From positions 1 through 50,782 of the IMG/VR virus record IMGVR_UViG_3300036761_001804: DNA of 50,782 nt. One strand, given 5' to 3'. The first letter of the stretch is position 1; the number at the start of each line of letters is the position of its first letter. Source of the stretch: a virus (Duplodnaviria; Caudoviricetes). The notes beneath the pieces were generated by a model. That model worked only from the letters and a program-made list of their open reading frames with translations, was not told where the DNA came from and did not search any database. Below are positions 1,193 through 29,328 of this stretch, piece after piece. The position numbers and the translations under genes were made by a program.

Positions 1193-2550
1193 GCTTGCAC
1201 CACACTGGAATCGTCACAGACGATCTTGTGTTAGAGCCGACTACGCCGACGACTGGACCACTAGCAGAAGAGCGGCAGACGCCGTGTGCTGCGGGTTGCA
1301 GTGCGATGCACGACGAGGCAAGCGAGGCCGAGCAAGAGTGCTGCGGCGGTTGTGTAGAGTGCTGCGGCTGCGTCTCGTGTAGCAATTCGCGTTGCTCATG
1401 GCGTGGCACTGACGGCTACTGCTCCGGCTGTGGTACCTGCGAAGACCATTGCACGCATTGGGAATGTGAAGGCTGTTCGCGTCGCTACGGCGAAGACGAT
1501 AGCCGTTGTTCTGCCTGCGAGCAATGCACTGACCGTTGCTGTGACTGTATGTACTGCGAAGGCTGCACCGAGAATTATGCGGCTGGCTCTGCGTGGTGCC
1601 GCTCTAGCGAAGATCAGCAAAGCCACTGCGCGAATTGCTGTGAGTGTTCCAGTGGCGGCGAGTGTGGCGAACTCATGGTAGAGCGCGAGCCACACTTCTA
1701 CGAGGCTGCACAGCCTTCACAGCGCAAGACGTACAAGAGTACGCGCCTTGTTGGCCTGGAGATCGAGGTTGCCAAGGTCAGCGAGAACACAGAGTCACTC
1801 GTGCAAGCCTGCCGTACATGGCGCGCTAGCATCGTCGAAGACGGTAGCGTTGACGATGGCTTCGAGATCAACACCAGCCCCGCCGCTGGGGATTACCTGC
1901 CTGCGATGATTGCTCGCATCGGCCGTGGCCTGCGAGAGGCAGACGCACGAGTAGACCAGCGTTGCGGCTTGCACGTCCACGTAGACTGTCGAGACTTCTC
2001 GTTCTACGACATGCGAAAACTCGTGAAACTCTACACCAAGATAGAGCCTGCGTTGTTCGCGATGATGCCCGGCTCGCGCCGCCGCTCTGTCTACTGCCGC
2101 CCTTGCGGTCAGCGTTTCGTCTACGACTTGGATCACTTCAAGATTCCCAAGGACAGCAAGCGCAAACTGCTCCAGAACGTGACGGATAGCACGCCGGATG
2201 TCTCGTGGAAAACGCAACGCTCTAGCAAGGGCGGACGTTATGGCTCTCGCTACAACGCGATGAACCTGCTGTCGTGGCTCTACCGTGGGACGATCGAGTG
2301 CAGACTACACACAGGCACAGTGCAAGCGAGCAAGATGCACTGTTGGGCGTTGCTCTGGCAAGCCATCGTAGACTTTGCGTACAAGAACACAGAGCACGAG
2401 ATCAACACGCTGTACGACAGCGGCGATCTTGGCTCTGCCGAGCCACTGTTGCTCAAGATCGCGCCAAGCGACGAAGTGCGAGCCTATGTGACCAGTCGGA
2501 TCAACGAGTTTCGCAATCACGGCCCACTGTTGCCAGGGGAGAGTGACTGA
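1174..2550 (+). CDS. Putative amidoligase (COOH-NH2 ligase, Amidoligase_2-like) with Cys-rich N-terminal region
   Basis: Motifs GLEIEV, EDGS, FEINT, CGLHVHV, RY.AMN and TIECRLH of the glutamine-synthetase-like amidoligase fold; next to a GATase gene. Confidence 0.85.
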   Translation: MADEIVGLHHTGIVTDDLVLEPTTPTTGPLAEERQTPCAAGCSAMHDEASEAEQECCGGCVECCGCVSCSNSRCSWRGTDGYCSGCGTCEDHCTHWECEGCSRRYGEDDSRCSACEQCTDRCCDCMYCEGCTENYAAGSAWCRSSEDQQSHCANCCECSSGGECGELMVEREPHFYEAAQPSQRKTYKSTRLVGLEIEVAKVSENTESLVQACRTWRASIVEDGSVDDGFEINTSPAAGDYLPAMIARIGRGLREADARVDQRCGLHVHVDCRDFSFYDMRKLVKLYTKIEPALFAMMPGSRRRSVYCRPCGQRFVYDLDHFKIPKDSKRKLLQNVTDSTPDVSWKTQRSSKGGRYGSRYNAMNLLSWLYRGTIECRLHTGTVQASKMHCWALLWQAIVDFAYKNTEHEINTLYDSGDLGSAEPLLLKIAPSDEVRAYVTSRINEFRNHGPLLPGESD

Positions 2551-2551
2551 C

Positions 2552-3484
2552 ATGTGCGGTATCTTCGGTTGGCAACTAGAGAAGCGTATGACCGATGGTC
2601 AGGCGCATGCTCTAGCAACCTCGCTCATGCTGTTTAACGAGAAGCGCGGTGAGCATTCATGGGGCTATGCGGATAGCGCAGGCGTCACGCGCAAGGGCAT
2701 CGGCGCTCTCACACAGCATGTGACCGCGCAAGACCTTGCGGCGTATGCGTGCGTCATGGTCCACACACGCCACAAGACCCACGGCGCGATCACGGTCGAG
2801 AATGCGCACCCCTATACCATCGGGCACATCACCGGCGCGCACAACGGCTGCTTGTGGAACGCCGACGAGTTGAACCAGATCAACGACCGCAAGTTTGCAG
2901 TAGACTCCATGCACATTTTCGCGCACATCAACGAAGGTCTTGCCTTGGCGGACCTCGTAGGGTACGGCGCGATCGAGTACGTGGATGCTCGCATACCAGG
3001 CCCTGTGTTCCTCGGCACGTTTGGGACTGGTGAACTCGCCGTAGCGCGTCTCAAGGGCGTTGGCACAGTCTGGAGCAGCGAGCGTGATGCGCTGAAGACG
3101 GCCATTGCCATCTCGAATAGCAAGATCGAGAAGATGTACAAGATTAAGGCGCAGCATCTCTATGCGCTACGCGGCGGCAGACTCACTGACACGGGCTTTG
3201 CGCTGGACGTGAGCGACTGGTACGACGACCGCAAGACGGTCGATGTACCTGCGGGCCTCGATGACTTCGGCGACGAGTCTATGCGCCGCTACAACGCAGA
3301 ACTCGCAGCCGATGAGCGGCACTACAGCACAGACACACAGAGCCTCGCGGACTACTACCGCGAGCAGGAACAAGCGTTGCATCCCGAGCGTGTGCGCCTT
3401 GTCGAAGACGTGAGCGCACGCAAGGGCGGGAGCAGGACATTCTACCTGGAGGAGGCCCGGCAGACTGCCGGATTCAAACCATGA
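2552..3484 (+). CDS. Class II (Ntn) glutamine amidotransferase
   Basis: Begins MCGIFG (Cys nucleophile); RG..SWG, HTRHKTHG, NAHP, AHNG and VDS motifs. Confidence 0.9.
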   Translation: MCGIFGWQLEKRMTDGQAHALATSLMLFNEKRGEHSWGYADSAGVTRKGIGALTQHVTAQDLAAYACVMVHTRHKTHGAITVENAHPYTIGHITGAHNGCLWNADELNQINDRKFAVDSMHIFAHINEGLALADLVGYGAIEYVDARIPGPVFLGTFGTGELAVARLKGVGTVWSSERDALKTAIAISNSKIEKMYKIKAQHLYALRGGRLTDTGFALDVSDWYDDRKTVDVPAGLDDFGDESMRRYNAELAADERHYSTDTQSLADYYREQEQALHPERVRLVEDVSARKGGSRTFYLEEARQTAGFKP

Positions 3485-3974: not shown

Positions 3975-4149
3975 ACATCGCCGCTGCGAAGTCTGCGGCG
4001 AGCCTGTTGGCAAGAAGGTGCGCCTTGAGAAGGGTGGCCCTGGCATGTGCCACGGTTGCTACTTCGACGCGAAGCGTGACGCCGCGACGCGGCCTACAAT
4101 CAGCATACCCTTACTGGAGGTTGACATTGCGCAAGATGGCGAAGACTAG
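3964..4149 (+). CDS. Small Zn-finger-like protein
   Basis: CEVC...CHGC. Confidence 0.5.
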   Translation: MITRHRRCEVCGEPVGKKVRLEKGGPGMCHGCYFDAKRDAATRPTISIPLLEVDIAQDGED

Positions 4150-4519
4150 AGGCGCGATCACTGCCGCAGAGATGCAGGAAGTGTTGCGCAAGAAGGCAGA
4201 ATACTTGACCCTAGAAGAAGTGCAAGCGCTGCTCACGAGGGATGGCGGAACGAAGACGCAGCCAGAAAGTGGTCAGTCGGTGAATGACTGTGCTCTAGAC
4301 GAGCGAATAGCCGACGATGCAGGTTCGAATCCTGCTCCCTCGACTCACCCGTGCAAGCGTTGCACCCGCGACATCGACTCACGCTACCCGTTCCGGGTCT
4401 GCGTGCGCTGCTCGCTCGACATGCTCGAAGAGACGTTGAACGAGCAAGGGTACCACGAGGCCCGCCGCAAGGCAGCCTACGAACGCCTGGCCGCAGCCGG
4501 GCTCCTCAAGGAGAAGTGA
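4136..4519 (+). CDS. Hypothetical protein with C-terminal CxxC-CxxC finger; contains the tRNA-like element
   Basis: ORF MAKTRG...; CKRC...CVRC. Confidence 0.5.
   Translation: MAKTRGAITAAEMQEVLRKKAEYLTLEEVQALLTRDGGTKTQPESGQSVNDCALDERIADDAGSNPAPSTHPCKRCTRDIDSRYPFRVCVRCSLDMLEETLNEQGYHEARRKAAYERLAAAGLLKEK
4236..4343 (+). ncRNA. tRNA-like RNA with non-canonical anticodon/variable region
   Basis: Acceptor stem CGAGGGA/TCCCTCG plus A; U8-G9; D-arm GCG-GAACGAAGA-CGC; T-arm GCAGG-TTCGAAT-CCTGC; no canonical anticodon arm. Confidence 0.65.
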
Positions 4520-10657: not shown

Positions 10658-11539
10658 ATGACCAAACATCCCAACCTCGTAGCGTGGCGCAAAGCCCACG
10701 GCAGCCTCTGCCATGTGTGTCCGTTGAACGGGCAACGCTGCGCAGGTTCGGATGGTCCAGTTGAGGCTGAGCACATTGGCGTAGGAGACTTCCCAAGTCA
10801 GGACGATGTAGACGACGGCGTGACGCGCGGCCAGACCCACGGACGCGCCTTCAGCGACGGTGTTGGGTACTACATGAAACTGGAGAACCTTGTACCCGAG
10901 GGCCTTGCGACGCTCGTCCATGTCCCAGGCCGGAAGTGGCCCCGCGTCGTGCTCAGCAATACGTTCTTGATGAACCTGATCATGTGTCACATTCCCGGGA
11001 AGAAGAAGCCCCAGGTCAAGATTCGTTCCACCGTAGGTCGGCACGCCATCCTGTGCTGCGCCAATTCGTACCGCGCCGTGATGCGCCGGATCTACAAGGA
11101 CAACCCGCGTCGAACGCTGACAACGATGGGCACCGCAGCCACCAGTACAACCCTTCGTATGCCAGCCGCGATCGAGGCGTTCCGTGGCCGCATCCCTGCC
11201 CCGTGGGTGGATGCAGACATCGAGCGCCTCTTCGCGCCGATCCCTGAAGAGCAGATCTACAAGGTGGTACTCCGAGGAAAGCATCCCAAGGAGCCGTGGT
11301 GGCCAGCCATGGAATGGTTCTTGGCCGAGATCTTGAAGTTGCAGCGCGCGGGTGTGCGCAAGGTAGCGAAGTGCGGGCTCACGCCGCCACGAGAGTTCAC
11401 AGCGACGTATGAGCATATCCGCATCGACACTGGCGAACACTACATTACCAACCATGCCGTGGTCCTAGATCTTCTACTGCGGCGCCAAAGACAAGCGCTC
11501 ACGAAGCGCACGAAAAGGGAGAAGCAGGATGGAAACTAG
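10658..11539 (+). CDS. Degenerate family-4 uracil-DNA glycosylase-like protein
   Basis: CHVCPL, GVGDFP (cf. VGEAP), FLMNLIMC (cf. YITNVVKC), AILCC, TMGTAA and FRG. Confidence 0.7.
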   Translation: MTKHPNLVAWRKAHGSLCHVCPLNGQRCAGSDGPVEAEHIGVGDFPSQDDVDDGVTRGQTHGRAFSDGVGYYMKLENLVPEGLATLVHVPGRKWPRVVLSNTFLMNLIMCHIPGKKKPQVKIRSTVGRHAILCCANSYRAVMRRIYKDNPRRTLTTMGTAATSTTLRMPAAIEAFRGRIPAPWVDADIERLFAPIPEEQIYKVVLRGKHPKEPWWPAMEWFLAEILKLQRAGVRKVAKCGLTPPREFTATYEHIRIDTGEHYITNHAVVLDLLLRRQRQALTKRTKREKQDGN

Positions 11540-12346: not shown

Positions 12347-12605
12347 CGCCGAACTGGAGTGCATGTCGCACAATGATCTGTGCGAACGCGTGCGCGATCT
12401 CCAGCATCAACGCCTGATCTGGGCCAAAGCCACGGAAGGCACCGAGCGCAGGAACGTGAAACTCGTAGACGTTGCAGCGCAGGCGGTCGGACTCAACAGG
12501 GCGGTGTTTGCTCGGGCGCACGCGGAACTCCAGGCCATCCAGGCTCGGGCCGACGAAGTGATCCGCGAACTCAAGACGGTGATCGAGGAGACGGGGGGCA
12601 AGTGA
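12330..12605 (+). CDS. Hypothetical coiled-coil protein
   Basis: ORF coupled to polA by a GTGA overlap; start uncertain. Confidence 0.55.
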   Translation: MRDLSNAELECMSHNDLCERVRDLQHQRLIWAKATEGTERRNVKLVDVAAQAVGLNRAVFARAHAELQAIQARADEVIRELKTVIEETGGK

Positions 12606-14719
12606 GGCCACAGGGAATGCTCTTCTGCCCGACGCTCCTCCCGGGCTCACTGTTCGCCAACCAGGCGCTAGCCTTCGCCGTGCGCGAGGATTGGGCGAAG
12701 GCGGCGCGCATCCAGCAGCACGGGGCCACGCGTGTTCCACTCCCCATGCTTCCGTGGCAGATCGAGCCCCAGGTCCAGCATGTGCGAACGTACTTCATGC
12801 GCATGGTCACGGACCCCGGGCCGTGGGTGATCGACTTCGAGGCCACCCTGATGGGCGAGCCTGTCTGCCTGAGTATCTGGTCAGCGTACAAGCCGATGTT
12901 CCACCGGGGTATCTGCATCCCGTTCCTCAACCAGGGCGGTAGCCGCTACTGGTCCATGGAAGACGAGGCCACCGTCATGGGCCTAGTCACATGGTTCTTC
13001 CTCGATCCATACTTCAAGAAGTGGGGGCACAACCTTGCAGGCTACGATACTGGCGTACCGCCGTTTAACTGGCGTGCTCTTATCAAGACCGCGTGGAACC
13101 TCGACGTGGCAGGGGTGGAGGGAGACACCATGGCCGCCCACCATGTTACGTTCGCCGAACTACGTCATAGTCTTGCCTTCCTGGCTTCGATGGTCACGGA
13201 CCAGCGTTCATACAAGTTGGACGTGTGGAAGGACGACGACGGAGACGAAGATGTCAAGGCCAAACCTGAGTGGTCACGTATTCTCGACCGTCCAAACGAG
13301 AAGACGCGCACGTACTGCAACGAAGATACGTTTTCCACTGCGGTGGGACATAACGTACTTGTTGCAGAGATGGATACTCTGGGATGTCGGGCAATCCATG
13401 ACACTATCGCCCTGCCGCTTATACCAATCGTTCAGGAAGTAGGCTATCGCGGGATGCCCATCGACACCACGCTTCGCGACGACATGATCTTCGACTTGGA
13501 CTTGCGCAAGGGCGCAGTCGGGCAGCGTCTTCGCGAAGCGGGCGTCACTACGATGAACTCTCCACAGAAACTCGGGTGGCAACTCAAGGATCTTGGTGTG
13601 CCCCTAGTGGAGACAACGGAGGGCGGACAATTCAGGACAGATCTGGAAACGATCGGGAAGATGAACTGGAAGTTGAACACGCTCCCGGCCAAGAAGGGCG
13701 GCGAGTCTCAGTTTCCGTTCTTGTCATTGATCAAGGAGTACCGCAGGTTGGAGAAGGCGAGCAAGAATCTGGCCTCGCTGATTCCCTGCGACGACGGACT
13801 CCTGCGCACACGGATGCAAGCCATTGGAACTGTGACTGCCAGGTATGCCTCCGCTGGATTCGGCACCAAAGACAAGCCTGGGTGGTGCAATATCTGCAAG
13901 ACGTGGGGCGCACACGGCACGAATCTCCAGAACATCCCGAAGGACAACAAGGAACTCGGTGTCAATGTGAAGGATGTCTTCCATGCGAGCCCCGGTTGGC
14001 TCTTGGGAGAGTTGGACTACCGCGCATACGAACTCGTGATCCAGGCTCACCGCATCAAGAGCGAGAAGATGATCTCCCGCCTGGAGACACCCGGCGCAGA
14101 CCCACATAGTCTCCACGCGAAGTTGATGTACCCGGACTTCGCCGGGAAGGGCACGCCCAGCGGGGATCGTCAGCGCGGGACGATGAAGAACGTGATCTAC
14201 GGGAAGCGCGGCGGCGGCGGGAACCGGGCGCTCCAGAGTGCCCTGGCGAAGAAGGATGAGTTCTTCGAGTTGCCAGAGATCGAGGAGTTCCGCGTCGTGC
14301 TCGATGCTGAGTATCCCGAGGAGCCAGAGTGGATCACCTGGACCGGCCACATGCTGGAGAACCAGTTGCTCAACGGTGAGCGCCGGGTGATCTACAACGC
14401 CTTCGGCAGGCCGCGCGTGCTCATGGGCCGCGAGCCGTTGAAGGCCGCGCTCGCCACGGAGATTAGCGGCACGGGCGCGGAGATCATGAACTGCGTGTTC
14501 CTGCGGATGGCGATCTACCATCCAGAAGAGTTCAAGTATATCTGCCTACAGATCCACGACTCCATCCTGGTTCACGCACCGAAGGCGATCTTCTGGCACG
14601 TTGTCGAAGTAGTCAAGGCCGAGATGGAGCGTGCGGTCTGGATGTGGGGCGAGTTCGTCACGTTTGGCGTAGACGTGAAGTTCGGCGAGCGCTGGACGGG
14701 CATGAAGGAAGCGGCATGA
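12602..14719 (+). CDS. polA: Family A DNA polymerase with 3'-5' exonuclease
   Basis: Exo I IDFE, Exo II GHNLAGYD, Exo III YCNED; NLQNIP; motif A LDYRAYEL; motif B R..MKNVIYG; motif C QIHDS. GTG 12602 start inferred from GTGA overlap and a GGAG RBS. Confidence 0.93.
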   Translation: MRPQGMLFCPTLLPGSLFANQALAFAVREDWAKAARIQQHGATRVPLPMLPWQIEPQVQHVRTYFMRMVTDPGPWVIDFEATLMGEPVCLSIWSAYKPMFHRGICIPFLNQGGSRYWSMEDEATVMGLVTWFFLDPYFKKWGHNLAGYDTGVPPFNWRALIKTAWNLDVAGVEGDTMAAHHVTFAELRHSLAFLASMVTDQRSYKLDVWKDDDGDEDVKAKPEWSRILDRPNEKTRTYCNEDTFSTAVGHNVLVAEMDTLGCRAIHDTIALPLIPIVQEVGYRGMPIDTTLRDDMIFDLDLRKGAVGQRLREAGVTTMNSPQKLGWQLKDLGVPLVETTEGGQFRTDLETIGKMNWKLNTLPAKKGGESQFPFLSLIKEYRRLEKASKNLASLIPCDDGLLRTRMQAIGTVTARYASAGFGTKDKPGWCNICKTWGAHGTNLQNIPKDNKELGVNVKDVFHASPGWLLGELDYRAYELVIQAHRIKSEKMISRLETPGADPHSLHAKLMYPDFAGKGTPSGDRQRGTMKNVIYGKRGGGGNRALQSALAKKDEFFELPEIEEFRVVLDAEYPEEPEWITWTGHMLENQLLNGERRVIYNAFGRPRVLMGREPLKAALATEISGTGAEIMNCVFLRMAIYHPEEFKYICLQIHDSILVHAPKAIFWHVVEVVKAEMERAVWMWGEFVTFGVDVKFGERWTGMKEAA

Positions 14720-14943
14720 AGCAACGTCTTGACTCCCCGCTTCGCGAGTATCGTGGTCGCGAGCACCGCAAGATCCGTGTCTACATCAAGCGTTACCTGG
14801 GCCGGGCCAACCGTTGGGAAACCGGCTTCAAGGGAGTCCTCATTCACGAAATGTACACCATGGGTCTGGACTTCATCGAAGAGATCAACTCCATGCTTTG
14901 GTCGCCTCGCCGACCCCGGACGTACCGCCGCCGTGCCAAATGA
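14716..14943 (+). CDS. Small basic hypothetical protein
   Basis: ATGA overlaps on both sides. Confidence 0.6.
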   Translation: MKQRLDSPLREYRGREHRKIRVYIKRYLGRANRWETGFKGVLIHEMYTMGLDFIEEINSMLWSPRRPRTYRRRAK

Positions 14944-15983
14944 GCCGAGTCATACTCGACGTACCACACGAGGAGTTGATCACTCGTGTTCCTCCACCTT
15001 GGCTCTTGGAGGGCGTGGCTCCGGTGAACGGGATCATGCTCGTCCATGGGAAGTCTGGAGCCGGGAAGTCGTACATTTGCCTCGACATCGCCCTGTGTCT
15101 CGCTACCGGGAAAGCCTGGCATGGACACAAGGTCAAGCAAGGCCCGGTATTGTATCTGTCGGCGGAAGGACAGGATGGCTTGTCGAGCCGCGTGAGGGCG
15201 TGGATGGCGAAGAACGATCTCCCGCCTGGTCCACTCCCCATGTTCCACGTCTTGGAGACGGTCGATCCCCTGGATCGCGAGGCCATGTGGGCGCTCGGCA
15301 ACCTGATCACGAAGCGAAAGCCCATCGCCGTGTTCTCGGACACCTGGGGCGCGCACATGGGCGGCGGCGGCGGGGACGTGAATGCCCCGAAGGACACGGG
15401 GCAGGCCGTGGCCGCGTGGCGCAAGTTGATCGACACGCATCGCTTCAGCGCATGGCTGATCCATCACCAGGGTCACAAGGAAAGCGAGCGCGCTTTGGGC
15501 AGTGGTGCTCTGAAGAACGCCGCAGAGAACGAGATCTCTATCGTTCAAGACAAGGCTGGGATCGTCACCGTGACGAACTTGAAGCGCCGCGACAAGGGTG
15601 GCTTTGACGAGATGCAGTTCATCAAGGAAGTGATCGACCTGGGGATAGATGCGAACGGGGATAAGGACGAGGCACTGGTGTTCGTCCTGGCTACGACCCC
15701 GCACCCTGAGTCCGACCCGGAGTCCACGACGGATACGAGCCAGAAAGCCTTGCTTGCGCTCTCGTCAACCATCATCGCGAACGGTACGATCTCCGGGGAA
15801 GAGAAAGGGTTGACGTACTCGGCCTGGCGTGACGCCACGCCGCTCCTCGGGGCCGCCTTCAGTCGCACGCGTGATGCGTTGGTCGCGGCAGGGCTCGTCA
15901 AGAAGCACGGCACAGGACGCGGGGCCACGTATATGCCCGCCACGCCTGCGACCGACGAGACAGTGTGGAAGGGACCAGAGTGA
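14940..15983 (+). CDS. RecA-family (AAA_25/RepA-like) helicase without primase domain
   Basis: Walker A GKSGAGKS, VLYLSAEG, Walker B VFSDT, IHHQG, GSGAL. Confidence 0.88.
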   Translation: MSRVILDVPHEELITRVPPPWLLEGVAPVNGIMLVHGKSGAGKSYICLDIALCLATGKAWHGHKVKQGPVLYLSAEGQDGLSSRVRAWMAKNDLPPGPLPMFHVLETVDPLDREAMWALGNLITKRKPIAVFSDTWGAHMGGGGGDVNAPKDTGQAVAAWRKLIDTHRFSAWLIHHQGHKESERALGSGALKNAAENEISIVQDKAGIVTVTNLKRRDKGGFDEMQFIKEVIDLGIDANGDKDEALVFVLATTPHPESDPESTTDTSQKALLALSSTIIANGTISGEEKGLTYSAWRDATPLLGAAFSRTRDALVAAGLVKKHGTGRGATYMPATPATDETVWKGPE

Positions 15984-16237
15984 TGCCTTACGTGATGAAG
16001 TCTGTTCGCCCGAGGATCGAGCCGCACATGGGTTCGATGGCGATGTCCAGTGGGGAGTTGAACTACCAGATCACGCGCCTGTGTGTGGGCTACCTCGACC
16101 GCCACGGGCTCCGCTACTTCACCCTCAACGACATCATCGGCGCACTGGAGTGCGCGAAGATGGAACTCTACCGGCGTGTGGCCGCTCCATACGAAGACGA
16201 GAAGATCAAAGAGAATGGAGACGTGTACGACATATGA
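15983..16237 (+). CDS. Conserved phage protein (DUF6899-like)
   Basis: MPY...GELNY.IT...GALECAKMELYRR...PYED.KI.ENGDV pattern. Confidence 0.65.
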   Translation: MPYVMKSVRPRIEPHMGSMAMSSGELNYQITRLCVGYLDRHGLRYFTLNDIIGALECAKMELYRRVAAPYEDEKIKENGDVYDI

Positions 16238-16680
16238 GGTGCTACGTTAGCGGCCCAATGCGCGGCCATCCCAAGTTCAACTTCCCCGCGTTCGACAACC
16301 TGGCGGCGTACATGCGCAGCGAGGGATGGGACGTGGACAGCCCTGCGGAGCATGACCGCACCGTGTTCCCCGACATCGAGGAGTGGCCTGGTTACGCGGA
16401 CGGTGATCCGGCTCTGTGCCCCAAGTTCAACTACTCCGTGTCCATGCGCTGGGACATCACCCGGGTAGTCGAAGACGACGCGATCGTCCTGCTCCCCAAC
16501 TGGTGGACGAGTACCGGGGCGAAGTTCGAGCGCTTCGTGGCTGAGCAGTGCGACCGGCTCGTCTACGTCGCCGTGCCCTGCCTCGCGGGTGACGCGATCG
16601 TCACATGGTCCATCTACCCAGACGTGGCGAAGCGTCTGACTGGACCGACCGTCAAGCCTACGGAGGAGCAAGGTGAGTAA
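16234..16680 (+). CDS. DUF4406 / nucleoside 2-deoxyribosyltransferase-like protein
   Basis: YVSGPMRG...FNFPAF, SPAE, DAIVLLP.W..S.GA..E. Confidence 0.82.
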   Translation: MRCYVSGPMRGHPKFNFPAFDNLAAYMRSEGWDVDSPAEHDRTVFPDIEEWPGYADGDPALCPKFNYSVSMRWDITRVVEDDAIVLLPNWWTSTGAKFERFVAEQCDRLVYVAVPCLAGDAIVTWSIYPDVAKRLTGPTVKPTEEQGE

Positions 16681-17077
16681 GGCACTGTTCACGCGCTTCA
16701 ACCAAGACACGGCAAACCCCAAGGACGCCCTGGGCTCGGCGAAGCCCGACCTGAGCCTAGTCCCACCCGCCTCGCTGATCCACGAGGCCCTGGCAATGGA
16801 GAACGGAGCGAAGAAGTATGGACCGTACAACTGGAGAGCGAAGAAGATCCGTGCGCGCGTGTACGTGGCTGCGGCCCTGCGCCATCTGTTGCAGTATCTT
16901 GATGGCGAGGATACCGCTGTGGACTCGGGTGTCCACCATCTTGCGCACGCGAAAGCCTGCTGTGGAATCCTTCTGGATGCCATCGAGACGGGGAACCTCG
17001 ACGACGATCGTCCGAAACCGGGCAGCGCAACGCGCCTTCTTGTTGGACGGAGCGCACCTACCGGACCCGTTCAATGA
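16673..17077 (+). CDS. dATP/dGTP diphosphohydrolase domain protein (DUF5664-like)
   Basis: KP.LSLVP, GA.KYG.YNWR, AALRHL, DGED...DSG.HHLAHA.AC, DDRP. Confidence 0.85.
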   Translation: MSKALFTRFNQDTANPKDALGSAKPDLSLVPPASLIHEALAMENGAKKYGPYNWRAKKIRARVYVAAALRHLLQYLDGEDTAVDSGVHHLAHAKACCGILLDAIETGNLDDDRPKPGSATRLLVGRSAPTGPVQ

Positions 17078-17838
17078 GTAAACACAGCAAGACGCGGCGT
17101 CACATTGTCATCCCTGACGGCCAGGTCCAGCCTGGCACCCGCAGCAACCACTGGACTGCGCTCGGGAACTACATCGCCGAGTGGCAGCCCGACGTGATCG
17201 TGAACCTCGGGGACTTCTACGACATGCGGAGCCTGTGCGTCTACGACAGGGATCTCGCGGAGGTAACGCAACGCCGCTACGCCGGGGATCTACGGGCCGG
17301 AGATGAGGCTCTCGATCTGCTCATGAAGCCCTGGCCGAAGTCCTACAAGCCCAGGCTCGTTTACACGCTCGGGAACCATGAGGAGCGGGCGAACAGGCTC
17401 ATGGACATGCAGCCCGTGTTGCGCGGGGCTGTGGCGATGCCCTGGGACAAGGCCAAGTCGAAGGGATGGGAAGTGCATCGCTACCTCCAGCCCGTGGTCG
17501 TAGACGGGATCGCCTACGCGCATCTGTTCGTGAAAGGAGCCAATGGACGTGTCACGAATGCCAAGTTTGGTGCGGCGAATGCGCGGACACAGGTGCTACG
17601 CGAAATGCGGTCATGTACTGCTGGTCACAAGCCAGGGCTCGACGTGCATATTCAGCCTATTGGCACCGGGTCTATGCGCGGGATCATCGCCGGTTCCTTC
17701 TACCAGCACGAGGAAGAGTACATGACCCCGCAGGGCACCACGTACTGGCGGGGTATCCTCGTCAAGCACGCGGTACGCAAGGGCAACTACGACCTGATGG
17801 AAGTCAGCCTGGACTACCTGCTTAGGAAGTATACCTGA
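17074..17838 (+). CDS. Calcineurin-like metallophosphoesterase
   Basis: IPDGQ, GDFYD, GNHE, YAH and AGH motifs. Confidence 0.88.
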   Translation: MSKHSKTRRHIVIPDGQVQPGTRSNHWTALGNYIAEWQPDVIVNLGDFYDMRSLCVYDRDLAEVTQRRYAGDLRAGDEALDLLMKPWPKSYKPRLVYTLGNHEERANRLMDMQPVLRGAVAMPWDKAKSKGWEVHRYLQPVVVDGIAYAHLFVKGANGRVTNAKFGAANARTQVLREMRSCTAGHKPGLDVHIQPIGTGSMRGIIAGSFYQHEEEYMTPQGTTYWRGILVKHAVRKGNYDLMEVSLDYLLRKYT

Positions 17839-19281: not shown

Positions 19282-22200
19282 TTACCTCCGTAGAAGTGGA
19301 ACGTCCGGGTTCTGTCGGTTCGCGATGGCGTCGCGCATCTTCTTCATGATCAGGTCGCGGCGCTCAGGGTGTTGCTGGAGTAGGGTATCGAACTCGCTGC
19401 TCACGCCTGCGGCCTCGGCCGCGCGCTGCTTCTGGTTCGGGGCCTCCACGGTGCTCGGGGTCATACCTACGAACCGCGCCAGCGGGGTCGCCGGGCCTAG
19501 AGCCATAGGCTTGCGCGCCTGCATCCCGCGCTCGTCGAGGCGGAAGGTGCCGGGGTTGTTACGGAGCATGTCGATCATGTCCGCAGTGTCCTTCGCAGAG
19601 CGGCCGTTCTTGACCATCTCTTCGACGGCCTGGTAGGGCCAGAACTGGCGCATGTAGTGCTCGGCCAGGTTCGGGCGATTGTAGTCCTCGACCACGGCCC
19701 CGTTCTCGTCCACGGTGCGCCCGTTGAACGTGGACAGCGGGCCTTGGAATTTCTCGTGCGTGAACAGGTTAGTACCCGTAGCCTGCTCGATGGCGATCTT
19801 CGCGAGCGGGTGCAGACCCGCGATGAACTGTGTCCCCGGGTCGCCCGTAGTCAGGAAGGAGAACGGGTTCGGACCCTTGGTGTTGAGCATGACCAGGGTA
19901 TCGGGCTTCCCGGTGGACCCCAGGGCAACGTGCAGCGGGATGGAATCGCGCATGCTCTCAGGGACCATCGTGTTCCAGTCGAACCCCATGCTCGCGGACG
20001 TGTCCTTGATATCTTGCAACGCGCGTTGTCCAACGGCCCGGGCCAGTTGCGCCTGCAACGGCTTCTCGAACGGGTAGCGAAGCAGCAATTCAGCACTGTG
20101 CCGGTAGAACTTGTAGTACGGGAAGACGTACCGGCCCACGTTGCGATCCAAGGCCGAAGTCCGGTCGTAGTTGTGCATCCAGCGGTTCATCCCGGTGACG
20201 GCCGACTTCAGGCCCTCGTCGGTCATGGCTTCCACGCCCATGCCGCGCAAGCGCGACAGGTTGTCTGCCATGTCCGCCATCGCCGCGCTCCCGTGGAGCA
20301 GGTTCTGCACCGCGCCCATCCCCTTCGGGGTCATCTCGTAGATCGTAGACCCCGCGCGATAGATGCTCTCCATCTCCTGGTTCGCGTGGGACATCAGGGT
20401 CGCCCACTTGCCCACGCCCCGGGCCACGGGGTTCGCGCTCGCGGCCATCTTCCCGCTCAGGTCCGTGACCTTGGCGAACGCCTCGCTGGCGCTCAAGCCG
20501 CCGCTGGCGACGCCGGGAAGGTGGAAGATACCAGCCAGGTTCTTCGACACTTCATCCTGCAAGATCCCGGCGCGACCGAGCAGTGCCCGTCCGGTAGTCG
20601 CGAGTGCCATGAGCCCGCGCGCGGAGAACGGGTGCAGGCCCTGCATCGTGATGAACTCGGTGTTCCCGTACATGTTGTTCATGAGGCGGCCAACCTTCAG
20701 GTTCAAGTTAACCATGTTGAACGGCCCCATGACCGCCTTGTCGCTGAACTGCGCGAGGGGGTTCGTGGTCGGGTCGAAAGACTTCTTGTAGAACGCGAGT
20801 TCGTCGCCGAAGCCCTTCGTGATCTTGTAGACTTCCCCTGCGGCTTCCTTGTTCCACGGGTAGGTCTTCTGTGCGGCCTCGGCCATACCCTGTGCGAGAT
20901 CCCCGAGGTTCACCGCACCGCTAGCAGCCTCGCCTGCGGCAGCCGTCTCATAGAGACGCGAGGCTACGCGGTCGAAGTGCTCTTGCACCATGCCGTCCAG
21001 GTGGAGTGAGGCCGGGTGGAGGATCTGGTGCGTCCCTGCGGCCAGGTCGGCGTCGTGCGCCCCGGTCCAGCCTGCGGGCATACGCTCCACGTAGCCCCAC
21101 CCATTCTTGATGCTCTCTTCGGCCGCGTCACGCGCGACGTTCCCGATGCTCTTGCCATGGATGGCAACCTTGTAGTACCGCGACAGGGCCGCTGCCGGGT
21201 CCAGGTGCTGGAGTTCGCCAGCGCGGAAGCGTGCCCCGAGGTTCTCCGAGTACACGTTCGACTCGCGCAATTTGTCCAGGGTGCCGCTGATCGTGCTCTG
21301 CTCCCGGGTCAGCACTTCCATGCTGTGCGGGATGATGATGCCGCCCTTCGGCCCCATGACTTCCAGTGCCTCGTCCACCGTGGTGGGCATGGCGCGCGGG
21401 AGCATGGAGTTAATCTCCTGGGCATCGAAGGTGTGTTGCTCCATGAGCAGGTTCGCTGCCTTGGTGCGGAACGCCGTCTCCTTCTGAACATCCAGCGCGG
21501 TGCGCGTGGACACGGTAGCCCGGCGAGCCTGGCGCTCGGTGGCCTCGGTGAGCCCGTTGTTGTACGCCGTCTCGGCGGCCTTGGCGTTCGCCGGGTCCAT
21601 GGGGTTGAAATCCGGGTTCGGCGTTCCATCGGGCATGTGCGAGCGGTGCAACAGTGCGGAGTCTCGCGCGTTCGCGGCATACGTCTCGGGGTCGATCCCT
21701 GCCTGCTTCTCGTAGTCCGCTTGCAGGGGCTTCCAGGCTTCGACCCACTTGTCCAGGGCTTCCTGGCGGATGGCCGAGCCGTTCTCCATGGCGCGCTTCT
21801 CGAACTCGCCCCGGTGGGTCAACTCGGTGATGGCTTGCGCCTCGGGGTTCAACTGCACGCGCCCCTCGCCGTAGGCGAACCGGATGGCCTTCTCCGCAGG
21901 CGTGAGCGCGAGCGGGCCAACGCTTCCATCTGGCTGGATGTCCTGCTCAGCGGCCTGCAACTTCGTGTTGAAGTCGTGCATCAGGAAGTCCTGACGGGCC
22001 TTCTCCGTGGCTCCCGCCTCGGCCGTCGCGTCACCGATGCGCAGGCGCGCGAGCGCATCCGGGGCCACCGTCTTCAACGCATACGTGCCCGTCTTCTGGG
22101 CAATCGAGATCGGGTCGATGGCCTTGCCAATCTCCGCAACGGTGCGGAGTTTGTTGGCGAGATTCACCGCACCCGCCATCTCGGCCGCCTTGCCCGCGAC

Positions 22201-22632
22201 GCCGAAAGGCCCCTGGAGAATCGTAGACGCGTCAATCAGGGTGTCGAAGGGGTGATCGTAGGCGTTGCGCGCGAGCATTCCCGGGACGCTCTCGTCGGGC
22301 CTCGGGGTGTACTTGTCGATGATCGGGTCAGCCAGGGTGTGCATCGTGTCGATGGGATGCACGACTGCGCCCGCCACGGCCTCCACGCTCTTGACAGGAT
22401 GGACGACAACCTCGCCCAGGAGCGCCCCCATCCCGCTAGCGAAGCGCCCGACATCGTGCGCGAAGTTCGACGCGAACCCGGTGATACCCTCGGGGGTCGT
22501 CTCGGGGATCTCCGTCTGGAGCACCTGGCGCTTGATGTCTTCGGGAGCCCCGATGTTGAGTCGGGGAGTACCGTAGTCATCAGCCGAAGCGTCGGCTTCC
22601 GGGTCGCCGAGCAAGTCGCGGAAGGCTGACAC
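19282..22632 (-). CDS. Large internal virion (DNA ejection) protein
   Basis: 1116 aa, Ala-rich and helical; terminal position in a podovirus-like late operon. Confidence 0.65.
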   Translation of the reverse strand: MSAFRDLLGDPEADASADDYGTPRLNIGAPEDIKRQVLQTEIPETTPEGITGFASNFAHDVGRFASGMGALLGEVVVHPVKSVEAVAGAVVHPIDTMHTLADPIIDKYTPRPDESVPGMLARNAYDHPFDTLIDASTILQGPFGVAGKAAEMAGAVNLANKLRTVAEIGKAIDPISIAQKTGTYALKTVAPDALARLRIGDATAEAGATEKARQDFLMHDFNTKLQAAEQDIQPDGSVGPLALTPAEKAIRFAYGEGRVQLNPEAQAITELTHRGEFEKRAMENGSAIRQEALDKWVEAWKPLQADYEKQAGIDPETYAANARDSALLHRSHMPDGTPNPDFNPMDPANAKAAETAYNNGLTEATERQARRATVSTRTALDVQKETAFRTKAANLLMEQHTFDAQEINSMLPRAMPTTVDEALEVMGPKGGIIIPHSMEVLTREQSTISGTLDKLRESNVYSENLGARFRAGELQHLDPAAALSRYYKVAIHGKSIGNVARDAAEESIKNGWGYVERMPAGWTGAHDADLAAGTHQILHPASLHLDGMVQEHFDRVASRLYETAAAGEAASGAVNLGDLAQGMAEAAQKTYPWNKEAAGEVYKITKGFGDELAFYKKSFDPTTNPLAQFSDKAVMGPFNMVNLNLKVGRLMNNMYGNTEFITMQGLHPFSARGLMALATTGRALLGRAGILQDEVSKNLAGIFHLPGVASGGLSASEAFAKVTDLSGKMAASANPVARGVGKWATLMSHANQEMESIYRAGSTIYEMTPKGMGAVQNLLHGSAAMADMADNLSRLRGMGVEAMTDEGLKSAVTGMNRWMHNYDRTSALDRNVGRYVFPYYKFYRHSAELLLRYPFEKPLQAQLARAVGQRALQDIKDTSASMGFDWNTMVPESMRDSIPLHVALGSTGKPDTLVMLNTKGPNPFSFLTTGDPGTQFIAGLHPLAKIAIEQATGTNLFTHEKFQGPLSTFNGRTVDENGAVVEDYNRPNLAEHYMRQFWPYQAVEEMVKNGRSAKDTADMIDMLRNNPGTFRLDERGMQARKPMALGPATPLARFVGMTPSTVEAPNQKQRAAEAAGVSSEFDTLLQQHPERRDLIMKKMRDAIANRQNPDVPLLRR

Positions 22633-26322: not shown

Positions 26323-29300
26323 CTATGGATGCGACGGAGGACCACCGGCCACGCATTCAAGCCAGCAACAATTTGCTGAAAGTGTACTGGCACTACTCAT
26401 CACTAGTTGGTAGGCTTCAAAGAAGTTTACAAACATTGGACCGGCTGCGTAGACCGTTACACCAGGGGCGCCCACCATACACCGATCTTCTCCGGGCGCC
26501 GTGGTGCCATTTATCTGGCATACAGGTGACGTGGTATCCTCTTGGAATGTACATGTGGATGAGCCAGCGTCAGCACTGTAGGTGCAAGCATTGATGTTGT
26601 TCTTGGCAAATCTCGCACGGAAGAACTTATTATTTGGTACGTCCACGCTGATCACACATTGAATATCGCTGACTGTGCGAGCATAAGGCGCGAGAGCCGA
26701 TTGTAGGCGCTGTGAAGGCGTCAGGTCGCACGCGGCACTGGAACTCATTGCTGGCGCGCAATATTCCGTTGTGTTGTTCACAGTTGATATAACGCACATG
26801 TTGGTACAGGTACCCGTGACCGCCTGCGAGCCTACTTGAAGTTGGGGCGTGGGCTTATCAGTCGGGATTGGTGAAACAGTCGGGATCGGAGTTGGGGTGA
26901 TGGTCAAAGTCGGCGTCACGCCTGTTGTTGGTGTAATGGTCGGCGTGCGCGTCGGCGTGACCGTTACTGTGGGCGTCGGGGTGCTCGTCGGGGTCAGTGT
27001 TGCCGCTGTCGCTGTTGGGGTAAGCGTGGGCGTGACTGCGATGAGTACCTTGCTCAAGAAGTCCGCGTCGCCTTGCACATCAAGGGTGTGATTTGGCGCT
27101 TGGTCTGCACCAATAACCGTAAACCCCGCGAACCTGTTGGTGACAATCGGATCAACTTGCTCGATCCCGATCGCTCCGGTTGCAGGATCTATCGAACTAT
27201 CGAGATACAATTGTACGGGAGGATTGGTATAGATTACTACTCCACCACTAATCGTCCAACCCCCAACATAGAGCATTTTGGCATTGGTGGCCGTTCCAGC
27301 GGTCATCAACGATGACCCTGCCGCGTTCGTACCTGAAACGCTCAAACCCCGCAGATCAGTGGCAATTCCCGTTTGGAGAATACCGCCATTCATCCCTACA
27401 CCAACATGCGCGCCGTACACCTTCCCAATGGTGATACTGCTCTCATAACTCGCGTTGAGATTCGCCCCAAGCAGACGCAGTGGCGCAGCAGAACTTTGCG
27501 ACCGATGAGTGGCTGTAGCGAGAAGCCCATCCGTCTCTACGCAGCGTCCAGAGCTTCCCGCATCCGAGACTTGCCCGATCGTGCCCGTTGGTCCGCAGAA
27601 TGCTATGGAGTCTAGTCCGGTGACAGTCGTGTAGGTGCCGAATCCGTTGTAGTTCGTATTACCGCGTAGACCGCCGAGTGTCAAGCCGGTCGTGCCTGCT
27701 GCTGAGGTATTGTCTGCTGCTGTAAATGACCCTCCGTACACCGAAGCATTAGCACTCCACTCGCTTCCCGGTACTCCTGTGGTATTCAGATACCTGACAG
27801 AGAGAGGCGAAAATGACGAAGTCGGGTTTATCCCGATTCCCATGATATCAAACCGGTCATTGTACTGGCTTTTGCATGCCCACCCGAGACAGATAGCGGT
27901 CTTCGTTACTTGAGGTCCTCCATTTGACATTAACGTCATTCCGGTGTTGGGCCAAATACCCCCCATGATCACAGGCAACATTGACTGCCCTTCCACGACA
28001 AGGATGGGCGTGGAAGTTGTTGTGGGTGCGCTTGTTGCTGTGGGAGTAGGCGTCGTACCCAGCACGGGCGTCGCTGTTTTAGTCGGAGAGGCTGTTTTCG
28101 TGCTCGTCAGAGTCGGCGTTGGTGATGCGGTTGCTGTGGGGGTAGGCCCGATATGCTCGTAAGCATCTACTTGTAGAAGGCAGCTTATTTCCATGAGCGT
28201 GCCCGCAGCATTGAAGGTGAAACATGTGGGCGTTGGGGCGGGCGTTGCCGTCAGTGTCAGCGTTGCCGTCGGACTGTCCGTCGGCGTGTTCGTCATGGTC
28301 GGCGTCGGGGTGTCTGTCACCGTCGGCGTGGCCGTCTTCGTCGGGGTCGCCGTCACCGTCACCGTGGGCGTTGCCGTGAGCGTCGGAGTGGCTGTGACCG
28401 TCGGGGTCGGCGTGACCGTGGGCGTCGCGGTCACGGTCGGCGTTGGCGTGACCGTCACCGTCGGCGTTGGCGTCTCGGTCTCCGTCGGGGTCGAACTGAC
28501 AGTGGCACTCGGTGTTGGGATACACGCCACTGCCGCAGCACACTTGAGTTCTAGTTGGATAACGTCCACGACTGGGGTTTCTAACTCGACATTATTGAAG
28601 ATGATGTCCAGGGAGTTGCTCTCCAACTCCACGTAGTTGTCCGTAGTACAAAACTCATCGTTCCCACAGATTGCAAGCACTGGTCCCGTGGTGGGAGTCG
28701 GAACAGGGGTTGTCGTACTCGTCGAAGTAGGCGTGGGCGTATCAGTCACGGTCGGTGTCGCCGTTACCGTGGGGGCAGGAGTCACCGTTACGGTCGGTGT
28801 CACGATACACGAGTTCACTTCCGCGCAGATGTTGCACGCTTGAATGTCCACGCACACATCAACAGTAGCAGTCGCGGTAGGCGTAGGCGTCACCGTAACA
28901 GTGGCAGTTGGTGAGAGCGTGGGAGTTCCCGTAGCTGTTATCGTGGCCGTGGGAGTGACCGTGGCCGTGGGGGTCGGCGTAGCTGTGCGCGTTGGCGTAG
29001 GCGTGCTCGTGGGCGTAGCCGTGGGGTCCGGGTAGCACACGGCGTTCCCGTTCTCTGCGATCCCGATCGCGTGGAACCCCGGGGTCGGGCACAACTTCGG
29101 CGCGAAGCACAACTCATCAGAGCAGTGATGCTTGTGGCATTGCGCCGATGAGACACCGTTCCCGCACTCCGCGCCCCAGAGGAACTCGTTCCCATCGTAG
29201 GTCGGGCAGTCCCCGAGTACGGGGGCCTGCCCGGGCGCGAAGAGCGTCTTCGGGCTCACCGGCTGCTGCGCAGCAGCAACCGTCGCGAACATGAGACACG

Positions 29301-29328
29301 CGATAATGGCAATGAACTTGCGCATCAT
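26323..29328 (-). CDS. Signal-peptide-bearing, Cys-rich, Thr/Pro-repeat tail-fibre-like protein
   Basis: MMRKFIAIIACLMFATVAAA signal; several long TPT tracts; fibre-like IG...P...L.V.G repeats; ATGA overlap with the upstream gene. Confidence 0.75.
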   Translation of the reverse strand: MMRKFIAIIACLMFATVAAAQQPVSPKTLFAPGQAPVLGDCPTYDGNEFLWGAECGNGVSSAQCHKHHCSDELCFAPKLCPTPGFHAIGIAENGNAVCYPDPTATPTSTPTPTRTATPTPTATVTPTATITATGTPTLSPTATVTVTPTPTATATVDVCVDIQACNICAEVNSCIVTPTVTVTPAPTVTATPTVTDTPTPTSTSTTTPVPTPTTGPVLAICGNDEFCTTDNYVELESNSLDIIFNNVELETPVVDVIQLELKCAAAVACIPTPSATVSSTPTETETPTPTVTVTPTPTVTATPTVTPTPTVTATPTLTATPTVTVTATPTKTATPTVTDTPTPTMTNTPTDSPTATLTLTATPAPTPTCFTFNAAGTLMEISCLLQVDAYEHIGPTPTATASPTPTLTSTKTASPTKTATPVLGTTPTPTATSAPTTTSTPILVVEGQSMLPVIMGGIWPNTGMTLMSNGGPQVTKTAICLGWACKSQYNDRFDIMGIGINPTSSFSPLSVRYLNTTGVPGSEWSANASVYGGSFTAADNTSAAGTTGLTLGGLRGNTNYNGFGTYTTVTGLDSIAFCGPTGTIGQVSDAGSSGRCVETDGLLATATHRSQSSAAPLRLLGANLNASYESSITIGKVYGAHVGVGMNGGILQTGIATDLRGLSVSGTNAAGSSLMTAGTATNAKMLYVGGWTISGGVVIYTNPPVQLYLDSSIDPATGAIGIEQVDPIVTNRFAGFTVIGADQAPNHTLDVQGDADFLSKVLIAVTPTLTPTATAATLTPTSTPTPTVTVTPTRTPTITPTTGVTPTLTITPTPIPTVSPIPTDKPTPQLQVGSQAVTGTCTNMCVISTVNNTTEYCAPAMSSSAACDLTPSQRLQSALAPYARTVSDIQCVISVDVPNNKFFRARFAKNNINACTYSADAGSSTCTFQEDTTSPVCQINGTTAPGEDRCMVGAPGVTVYAAGPMFVNFFEAYQLVMSSASTLSANCCWLECVAGGPPSHP

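Follow-up and report, generated by a model that had tools for sequence, protein, structure and literature searches.

Polymerase I-type enzymes seat and check the template base with Tyr766, Asn845 and Gln849 (Klenow numbering), which are the textbook residues for this task. Across 19 clusters of family A DNA polymerases (PolAs), position B4, the equivalent of Y766, has been described as only Tyr, or Phe in DpoZ, and the Phe of two DpoZ clusters was called a "unique substitution" (Czernecki et al., 2023; PMC10201439). Some phage enzymes have uracil-DNA glycosylase (UDG) as one of their domains; in the literature searched, the term "UDG-PolA" occurs in PMC10201439 alone. Separation of the 3'-5' exonuclease (exo) and polymerase (pol) parts into two genes has been reported before only in S-SBP1-like T7-like cyanophages (PMC10201439). 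The present study concerns the fused exo+pol gene of the uncultured phage record IMGVR_UViG_3300036761_001804 (hereafter the window, which is the whole viral record of 50,782 bp, with a completeness estimate of 98%), whose product has Gly at position 766. In the literature searched, which did not extend to subscription journals, no account was found of a naturally occurring family A polymerase that has Gly there.

The window polymerase lacks all three template-side residues. The alignments and the tree demonstrate that these residues are substituted, that the changes are rare and coupled, and that they arose once and have been conserved; the peculiar state of the pocket is, to judge from the sequences, old and under selection. 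We regard the enzyme, with a probability of roughly 0.6, as the phage's own replicative, proofreading family A DNA polymerase, in which the template side of the pocket has undergone a lineage-fixed and probably compensated remodelling. The parts of the gene are as follows.

12602..14719, + strand: fused exo+pol family A DNA polymerase gene, open frame of 705 codons (PF00476, phrog_17)
12602..13372, + strand: 3'-5' exonuclease domain, aa 1-257 (motifs located, aligned with the exo subunits of relatives and with UDG-PolA domains)
12833-12841, + strand: Exo I, DFE
13031-13048, + strand: Exo II, HN..YD
13313-13327, + strand: Exo III, Y..D
13364..13387, + strand: exo/pol junction AEMDTLGC, where relatives have a stop codon and a new start
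13787..13789, + strand: Cys396, proposed first metal ligand (PCxDG), invariant in 33/33 sequences and in all covering clade rows
13835..13852, + strand: region of the TGR motif, T-A-R-Y-A-S (R414 = Klenow R668; profile alignments)
13853..13921, + strand: insertion of ~20 residues, C429-x2-C432 ... H438, likely a zinc knuckle together with C396, not in Taq (profile alignment)
14009..14047, + strand: motif A, with D472 = D705, E477 = E710 (steric gate) and V479 for R712 (alignments to Taq)
14174..14221, + strand: motif B and end of the O helix, with R525, K529, Y533 (F762Y), R536 (I765R), G537 (Y766G) and a GGG loop (alignments, codons)
14441..14482, + strand: motif 6, with K614 (R841K), A618 (N845A) and S622 (Q849S) (alignments)
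14549..14569, + strand: motif C, H652-D653-S654 (E883S) (alignments)

Klenow positions were equated with those of the window protein (P0001) through HMMER alignments to Taq, made both with the single sequence and with a 33-sequence profile. A previous sequence-only reading had proposed by eye the changes F762Y, Y766G, N845A and Q849S, ELV for ELR in motif A, TAR for TGR, and a Cys/His insertion, and all of them were reproduced by both alignments. The alignments and the location of the motifs likewise bore out its claim that the catalytic Asp residues of motifs A and C, R754, K758 and Exo I-III are retained. The residues kept are R754 (R525), K758 (K529), D705 (D472), the steric gate E710 (E477), R668 (R414) and H881-D882 (H652-D653), so that the family A signatures, namely the Asp and steric-gate Glu of motif A, the Arg and Lys of motif B and the His-Asp of motif C, are all present. 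The residues changed are F762 (Y533), I765 (R536), Y766 (G537), R841 (K614), N845 (A618), Q849 (S622) and R712 (V479), as well as E883, which is Ser in an HDS motif (S654); R841K, I765R and E883S had not been noticed by eye. Two further hallmarks of the family, the B4 Tyr of motif B and the Gln of motif 6, are thus replaced, by G537 and S622. These positions are conserved but non-catalytic: membership of family A stands, and the site is atypical.

The predicted overall fold is that of an ordinary enzyme of this type. The open reading frame (ORF) matches the Pfam family PF00476 with an E value of 1.1e-25 and 90.8 bits (cut-off 34.3) and phrog_17 with 4.8e-53, and the 33-sequence clade profile matches Taq at 9e-32 (HMMER). 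An AlphaFold2 (AF2) model built from 51 aligned sequences and comprising both domains has a mean predicted local distance difference test (pLDDT) score of 91.1 and a predicted TM-score (pTM) of 0.89, and its best solved neighbours by Foldseek are the Bst large fragment and Klenow (E ~1e-23, TM(target) 0.75-0.79, 18-20% identity), followed by Pol theta; the solved Bst Y714S-mismatch entry 3hpo is also among the matches. The confidence of this model and the identity of its best neighbours point to a complete two-domain Klenow-type enzyme. No T7 polymerase chain was among the best 60 of the 76 PDB matches of a profile search, and the T7-like Tyr at B3 is present as Y533. R536 is the very last residue of the modelled O helix (519-536), after which come a GGGG loop and the O1 helix (541-549). 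With regard to the gene call, the GTG start at 12602 overlaps the stop codon of the upstream ORF and yields the N-terminus MRPQG, which resembles the MRPSG of the exo gene of a relative (L003); the database gene call (P0002, 700 aa) uses an alternative ATG at 12617.

How rare each substitution is was judged from 270 proteins aligned to the clade profile, with residue counts drawn from the 217 PolAs among them that lie outside the clade, and from ~76 further PolA ORFs of outgroup loci. Position 766 is Tyr in 212 of the 217; the sole true Gly is that of P0257, and the other four rows are gaps or local misalignments. Gln is nearly as constant at position 849 (210). The counts at the other positions are Asn 167, Ala 33 and Ser 12 for N845, Phe 154, His 29, Tyr 27 and Leu 5 for F762, and Glu 115, Ser 65, Gln 20 and Ala 12 for E883. 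Among the additional outgroup ORFs, 52 combine Tyr and Gln with HDS and 11 combine them with HDE; two near-identical loci (L097 and L099) are without Tyr at 766 and read FIHGCVTAG. F762Y, N845A and E883S are therefore ordinary variants, and Y766G and Q849S are rare. The high conservation that had been assumed for Y766, N845 and Q849 thus holds for the first and the third, not for N845, which is Ala or Ser in 45 of the 217. The possibility that the substitutions are common in ordinary phage PolAs, which the same reading had named as grounds for abandoning it, proved half true: it applies to F762Y (27 of 217) and N845A, not to Y766G and Q849S. The loss of E883 was considered as a special feature and dropped, Ser, Gln or Ala being found there in 97 of the 217.

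The lineage to which the enzyme belongs is small. A protein database search returned 33 close relatives at E <= 6e-64, then a gap to 2e-16; in a separate search, only 16 representatives among 1.84 billion reached E <= 1e-30. Relatives were found in ~7 contigs in IMG/VR and in a dozen among metagenome contigs, and the clade is known from metagenomes only. A query of viral contigs with a single protein (P0026) found no relative, while a query with an alignment did find relatives. No close isolate phage was recovered, the 68 tblastn records all being below 60% identity and the 40 of them listed at 21-27%, and no RNA sequencing run was listed as carrying the polymerase sequence.

Within the clade, two states of the pocket are found. 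Twenty-eight distinct proteins, the G-type, have R765-G766, A845, S849 and HDS, except that P0132 keeps Q849 and P0122 keeps E883. Fourteen proteins, the Y-type, have Gln, Leu or Val at 765 followed by Y766, mostly S845, Q849 and HDA. In a quick IQ-TREE maximum likelihood tree, from which the trait columns had been removed and which was rooted on bacterial Pol I, the whole clade, marked by its putative zinc site, forms one group (41 rows; Shimodaira-Hasegawa-like approximate likelihood ratio test (SH-aLRT) 100), and the G766 branch (27 rows, SH-aLRT 90) lies beside the 14 Y766 rows. Since the outgroups carry Tyr, Gly766 appears to be derived, with one origin inside the clade and one in P0257. 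In motif B the latter, an unrelated UDG-PolA that does not belong to the clade, has arrived independently at Y-G-A-R-G-G-G, so that Arg765 accompanies Gly766 both times. The R765-G766 pair is found in all 28 distinct G-type proteins, and over six loci it is written with synonymous codons, CGC and CGA for R765 and GGC, GGT and GGA for G766. Only nine columns are fixed differently in G-type and Y-type proteins; motif 6 and the O-helix end account for five of them (R536, G537, G540, A618 and S622). The G-type state is stable in sequences down to ~45% identity. These patterns indicate a coordinated, selected rebuilding of one pocket, comprising R765, G766, A845 and S849. The remodelled active site postulated by the sequence-only reading is hence borne out on the template side, where five of the nine differentially fixed columns fall and where Y766 is otherwise near-universal; the functions that it had proposed fared less well, as described below.

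How such a pocket might work can be outlined. On the branch of the window, Y766, N845 and Q849 gave way to Gly, Ala and Ser, and an Arg was gained at 765, the last residue of the O helix, at the same step. Arg765 may now stack on the templating base and contact its minor groove in their stead, with the Gly-rich O-O1 loop giving it room, and the enzyme would remain a primer- and template-dependent replicase whose accuracy leans on its intact exonuclease. An alternative is that the polymerase is intrinsically of low fidelity or tolerant of lesions, a mutator replicase or a repair enzyme from which the fidelity-checking residues have gone. Y766, N845 and Q849 are determinants of fidelity in Klenow and Bst, and their loss is confirmed by the alignment. 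However, the Exo I-III motifs are intact and conserved, the steric gate and the dNTP-binding residues are kept, and a scan of 53 ORFs of the 51-kb genome matched no DNA polymerase family besides this one. Low fidelity and template-independent synthesis, two functions that had been suggested earlier, fit poorly with the intact Exo motifs, and the state has been maintained over deep divergence. We hold the low-fidelity alternative to be improbable.

The predicted proofreading part of the protein has a complete set of DEDDy motifs, DFE, HNLAGYD and YCNED, which align with those of the relatives. Its arrangement is variable. Exo and pol are separate genes in 11/11 related loci that show both parts; the split was seen from ORFs in L001, L002, L003 and L028, while in L004, L016, L017, L029, L033, L036 and L039 tblastn gave separate segments that either differed in frame or had 0.4-2.2 kb between them. 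In L028, for instance, exo stops at 1989 and pol starts with an ATG at 2081. The fused form was found only in the window, P0021 and P0122, and since the window nests among split forms in the tree, its fusion is secondary, a re-fusion. Logan contigs of two sequencing runs, possibly those of the source samples, contain 2118 bases identical to the window, junction included, at depths of ~28 and ~17; an assembler artefact is therefore excluded, but the two occurrences are not independent. If the UDG gene described below is counted in, a polymerase of the UDG-exo-pol kind can be encoded by a single gene, by two or by three.

Such considerations also bear on whether the gene might be decaying or inactive, or its fusion and substitutions mere assembly errors, as the loss of several canonical residues and a fused gene unlike 11/11 related loci could suggest. 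The frame is nevertheless open for 705 codons, the codons for R765 and G766 vary synonymously across six loci, the state is common to 28 distinct proteins, the contigs of the two runs carry identical DNA, and the AF2 model is confident. This explanation is largely refuted and almost certainly wrong.

Other genes were observed around the split halves. In L003 (6745-7559) and L001 (10887-11318), genes lie between exo and pol, including small ORFs with a twin-arginine-like RRDFL motif; one of the two intervening ORFs of L003 (189 aa) has a KxDG ligase-like motif. The Y-type locus L016 has downstream of pol an extra stand-alone DnaQ-like "DNA polymerase exonuclease subunit" (13610-14338; phrog_403, E 2.5e-82).

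The Cys/His insertion is situated between RYAS and NLQNIP. C396, C429, C432 and H438 are present in all clade members that cover the region, with a single swap, Cys for His in P0125, and His-to-Cys swaps are typical of metal ligands. In the AF2 model the insertion has pLDDT values of 84-92 and forms two short strands. Most likely it is a zinc knuckle with a structural role, placed on the palm beside the primer terminus. The words "zinc" and "cysteine" do not occur in the available text of PMC10201439.

This insertion is relevant to the suggestion that the enzyme performs template-independent synthesis or primes DNA synthesis de novo, as it could in principle be a primase-style zinc finger, and no primase domain or family was matched among the 53 ORFs scanned in the window. 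The missing primase match is weak evidence given that many ORFs are unannotated, and the insertion is only ~20 residues long, lies inside the palm and is also found in Y-type members with a canonical pocket. Because of this last observation, it lends no support to template-independent synthesis or priming. Moreover, the template-strand contact R841 is kept as Lys, and the predicted fold is that of a complete Klenow-like two-domain enzyme. Nothing thus speaks for de novo priming, and we consider activity of either kind very improbable.

Further insertions occur in relatives. A second Cys-rich one (CxxC...CxC) follows NLQNIS directly in a G-type subset (P0006, P0014-17, P0019, P0020, P0022, L002 and L003), at ~10150-10220 in L002 and ~8110-8180 in L003. 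In the Y-type proteins P0034, P0128 and P0129, long insertions start with Cys after the HG of the palm insertion and after the motif A sequence EIDH; the two long insertions of P0034 give a weak LAGLIDADG match. These long insertions are probably inteins, on the basis of their sequences.

The window, in which the replication module lies on the + strand and the structural and lysis module on the - strand, contains the following other features of note.

10658..11539, + strand: detached UDG-like gene, a homologue of the UDG domain at the N-terminus of UDG-PolA fusions (hhalign; syntenic in relatives)
16222..16680, start approximate, + strand: DUF4406 (nucleoside 2-deoxyribosyltransferase (NDT)-like) gene (PF14359, E 1.8e-14; phrog_355)
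16673..17077, + strand: DUF5664 / dGTP_diPhyd_N gene, of the dNTP-to-dNMP pyrophosphohydrolase family (PF18909, E 5e-26)
17074-17838, + strand: metallophosphoesterase gene (phrog_221)
2543-3484, + strand: stand-alone class II glutamine amidotransferase-like protein (GATase), 313 aa, 30% identity with the G-type genome G001 only
4262-4344, + strand: tRNA-Ser (anticodon AGA), inside the mechanical ORF 4007-4519

The UDG-like gene, three small ORFs upstream of the polymerase gene, matches the UDG domains of the fusions with an hhalign probability of 98.9% and an E value of 2.3e-17, and its homologue in L017 matches PF03167 (E 7.7e-6, 26.5 bits, cut-off 24.3). The family has five invariant Cys (C18, C21, C110, C133 and C134), which resembles the Fe-S site that family 4 UDGs have. 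The GExPG motif is intact in the Y-type L017 but degenerate in the G-type members. A Pfam scan found no UDG domain within the polymerase ORF itself, which is accordingly not a UDG-PolA fusion. The nearest outgroups are proteins of 770-930 residues, and 9/9 of those tested carry PF03167 before exo and PolA; one UDG-PolA group is sister to the clade in the quick tree (SH-aLRT 91). Polymerases of the sister type, 22-28% identical to P0139, occur in isolates that include Microcystis phage Mel-JY34, Brevundimonas phages and SPO1-like Bacillus phages. The lineage is thus probably a small uncultured sister of the phage PolAs that are fused to UDG (N4-, SPO1- and SP15-like). Its three modules would have separated: the UDG-like part is a gene of its own upstream, most members have exo and pol as two genes, and the window phage has re-fused these two.

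Several points weigh against a replicase with a merely compensated pocket. Single substitutions of Y766, N845 or Q849 in Klenow or Bst lower fidelity, so that the triple loss may not be neutral, and the compensation by Arg765 is something that we infer. The tree comes from a quick search without bootstraps. Genes of the dNTP pool (DUF5664, the NDT-like DUF4406, the metallophosphoesterase and the GATase) flank the polymerase, and three of them, DUF4406, the metallophosphoesterase and the GATase, are common to the window and the G-type genome G001 and were not found in two complete Y-type genomes. Finally, other UDG-PolA lineages often serve thymidine-modified genomes (PMC10201439; preprint 10.1101/2025.03.26.645540).

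The last points raise the possibility that the G-type pocket (Gly766, Ala845, Ser849 and Arg765) has been adapted so that a non-canonical nucleotide can be copied or incorporated, with pool enzymes supplying it or clearing its canonical rival. The DUF5664 protein would convert dNTP to dNMP and the DUF4406 protein would hydrolyse dNMP or swap its base, perhaps with the GATase and the metallophosphoesterase taking part. DUF4406 and DUF5664 lie 1.5-2.4 kb downstream of the polymerase, the side chains lost are those that read the template minor groove, and UDG-PolA relatives are often tied to thymidine-modified DNA, as cited above. In Z-genome phages with PurZ0, a DUF5664 enzyme hydrolyses dATP and dGTP and the NDT-like DmtZ converts dAMP (PMC12884076). 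A DUF4406 match was obtained for the window and for L001, L002, L004 and L029, which are all of the G-type; neither of the complete Y-type genomes gave one, nor, however, did the G-type fragments L003 and L005. The GATase is shared with G001 only, and so is the metallophosphoesterase among the genomes compared. The metallophosphoesterase is far more conserved than the polymerase (74-80% identity in four of five G-type loci, as opposed to 48-58%) and was found neither in the G-type part L001 nor in the two complete Y-type genomes.

On the other hand, homologues of PurZ (PF00709), thymidylate synthase (PF00303) and tRNA-guanine transglycosylase (TGT)/DpdA (PF01702) were not found in this 98%-complete genome by searches whose positive controls worked; that for PurZ ran over six frames, with controls positive in 14/14 genomes. 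DUF5664 also occurs in phages with canonical genomes (PMC12884076), and it is present in the Y-type genome G004 as well, on which ground a link between Gly766 and DUF5664 was rejected. The contrast in gene content involves two to three genomes a side, which are each other's kin, and short reads of two runs gave a normal assembly of the DNA. The generally known phage DNA modifications are located in the major groove, with which family A polymerases have hardly any contact. The case for modified nucleotides, another function put forward in the sequence-only reading, is thus a circumstantial one made by neighbours, DUF5664 and the NDT-like DUF4406, and we consider it unlikely, if far from negligible. 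In a more specific form, the G-type polymerase would have been refitted to serve a genome in which the template bases are different on their minor-groove or sugar face. Arg765 would stand in for the Tyr766/Asn845/Gln849 reading head, and the unusual nucleotide would be made, or its canonical competitor removed, by DUF5664, DUF4406, the GATase and the metallophosphoesterase without PurZ, a thymidylate synthase homologue or TGT. This form is speculative and quite unlikely; if true, it would amount to a new kind of phage DNA chemistry with a dedicated polymerase.

Some other genes of the window deserve mention. An AAA_25 helicase (14814-15983, + strand) adjoins the polymerase; relatives have a helicase at the same place, with 31% identity in L028, and no tblastn match to it was found in L001-L005. 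A 1116-aa protein (19282-22632, - strand) is conserved in all relatives at 25-53% identity and has no Pfam, PHROG or PDB sequence match. A 1021-aa ORF (26323-29388, - strand) spans a stretch of low GC content (0.54 vs ~0.62) and may be a swapped host-recognition gene. The ORF 4007-4519 is probably not a gene, because the tRNA-Ser lies inside it.

If the pocket has indeed been remodelled in a replicative enzyme, as we favour, a lineage that lives without all three template-checking residues, always with a neighbouring Arg, constitutes a natural experiment on how a template pocket can be rebuilt. Its polymerases are candidate scaffolds for enzymes that accept unusual templates, and the fused protein of the window should be the simplest of them to produce in one chain. 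In addition, the lineage has its putative metal-binding insertion at a site close to the primer terminus.

Among the known systems, the nearest relatives outside the clade are the UDG-PolAs, that is, the N4-like enzymes, which correspond to cluster 17 in PMC10201439, and the SPO1- and SP15-like enzymes of the preprint 10.1101/2025.03.26.645540. They share with the window an HDS motif C, a short insertion at the TGR-NLQNIP site and the presence of a UDG homologue in the phage, and the degenerate motif A of the UDG matches what has been reported for the N4-like enzymes. In contrast to them, the window has its UDG part as a separate gene, most clade members have separate exo and pol, the insertion carries Cys and His, and the branch of the window replaces Y766, N845 and Q849; identity is only 25-28%. 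The S-SBP1-like T7-like cyanophages also have exo and pol as two genes, divided at the same domain boundary (PMC10201439), but the clade is a different PolA lineage, several of its loci have 0.4-2.2 kb with other genes between the halves, and the window is fused. DpoZ of the phiVC8-like and Wayne-like phages is, like the window enzyme, a phage PolA that departs at B4, and some Z phages have DUF5664 and NDT-like genes reminiscent of the window neighbourhood (PMC12884076); DpoZ nevertheless has Phe at this position (PMC10201439) where the window has Gly, the window genome has no PurZ, and the sequences are not close. The HMO-2011-type polymerase, with its partial DnaJ central domain (PMC9038755), has in common a Cys-rich, presumably zinc-binding insertion, whereas that of the window is inside the palm, before NLQNIP; for the 68 tblastn matches, neither the 40 listed records nor the named organism groups included an HMO-2011-type phage. 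Klenow, Bst and Taq, the best solved matches, have the same catalytic core and exo motifs as the window polymerase, from which they differ, at 18-20% identity, by having Tyr766, Asn845, Gln849 and Glu883 and no insertion.

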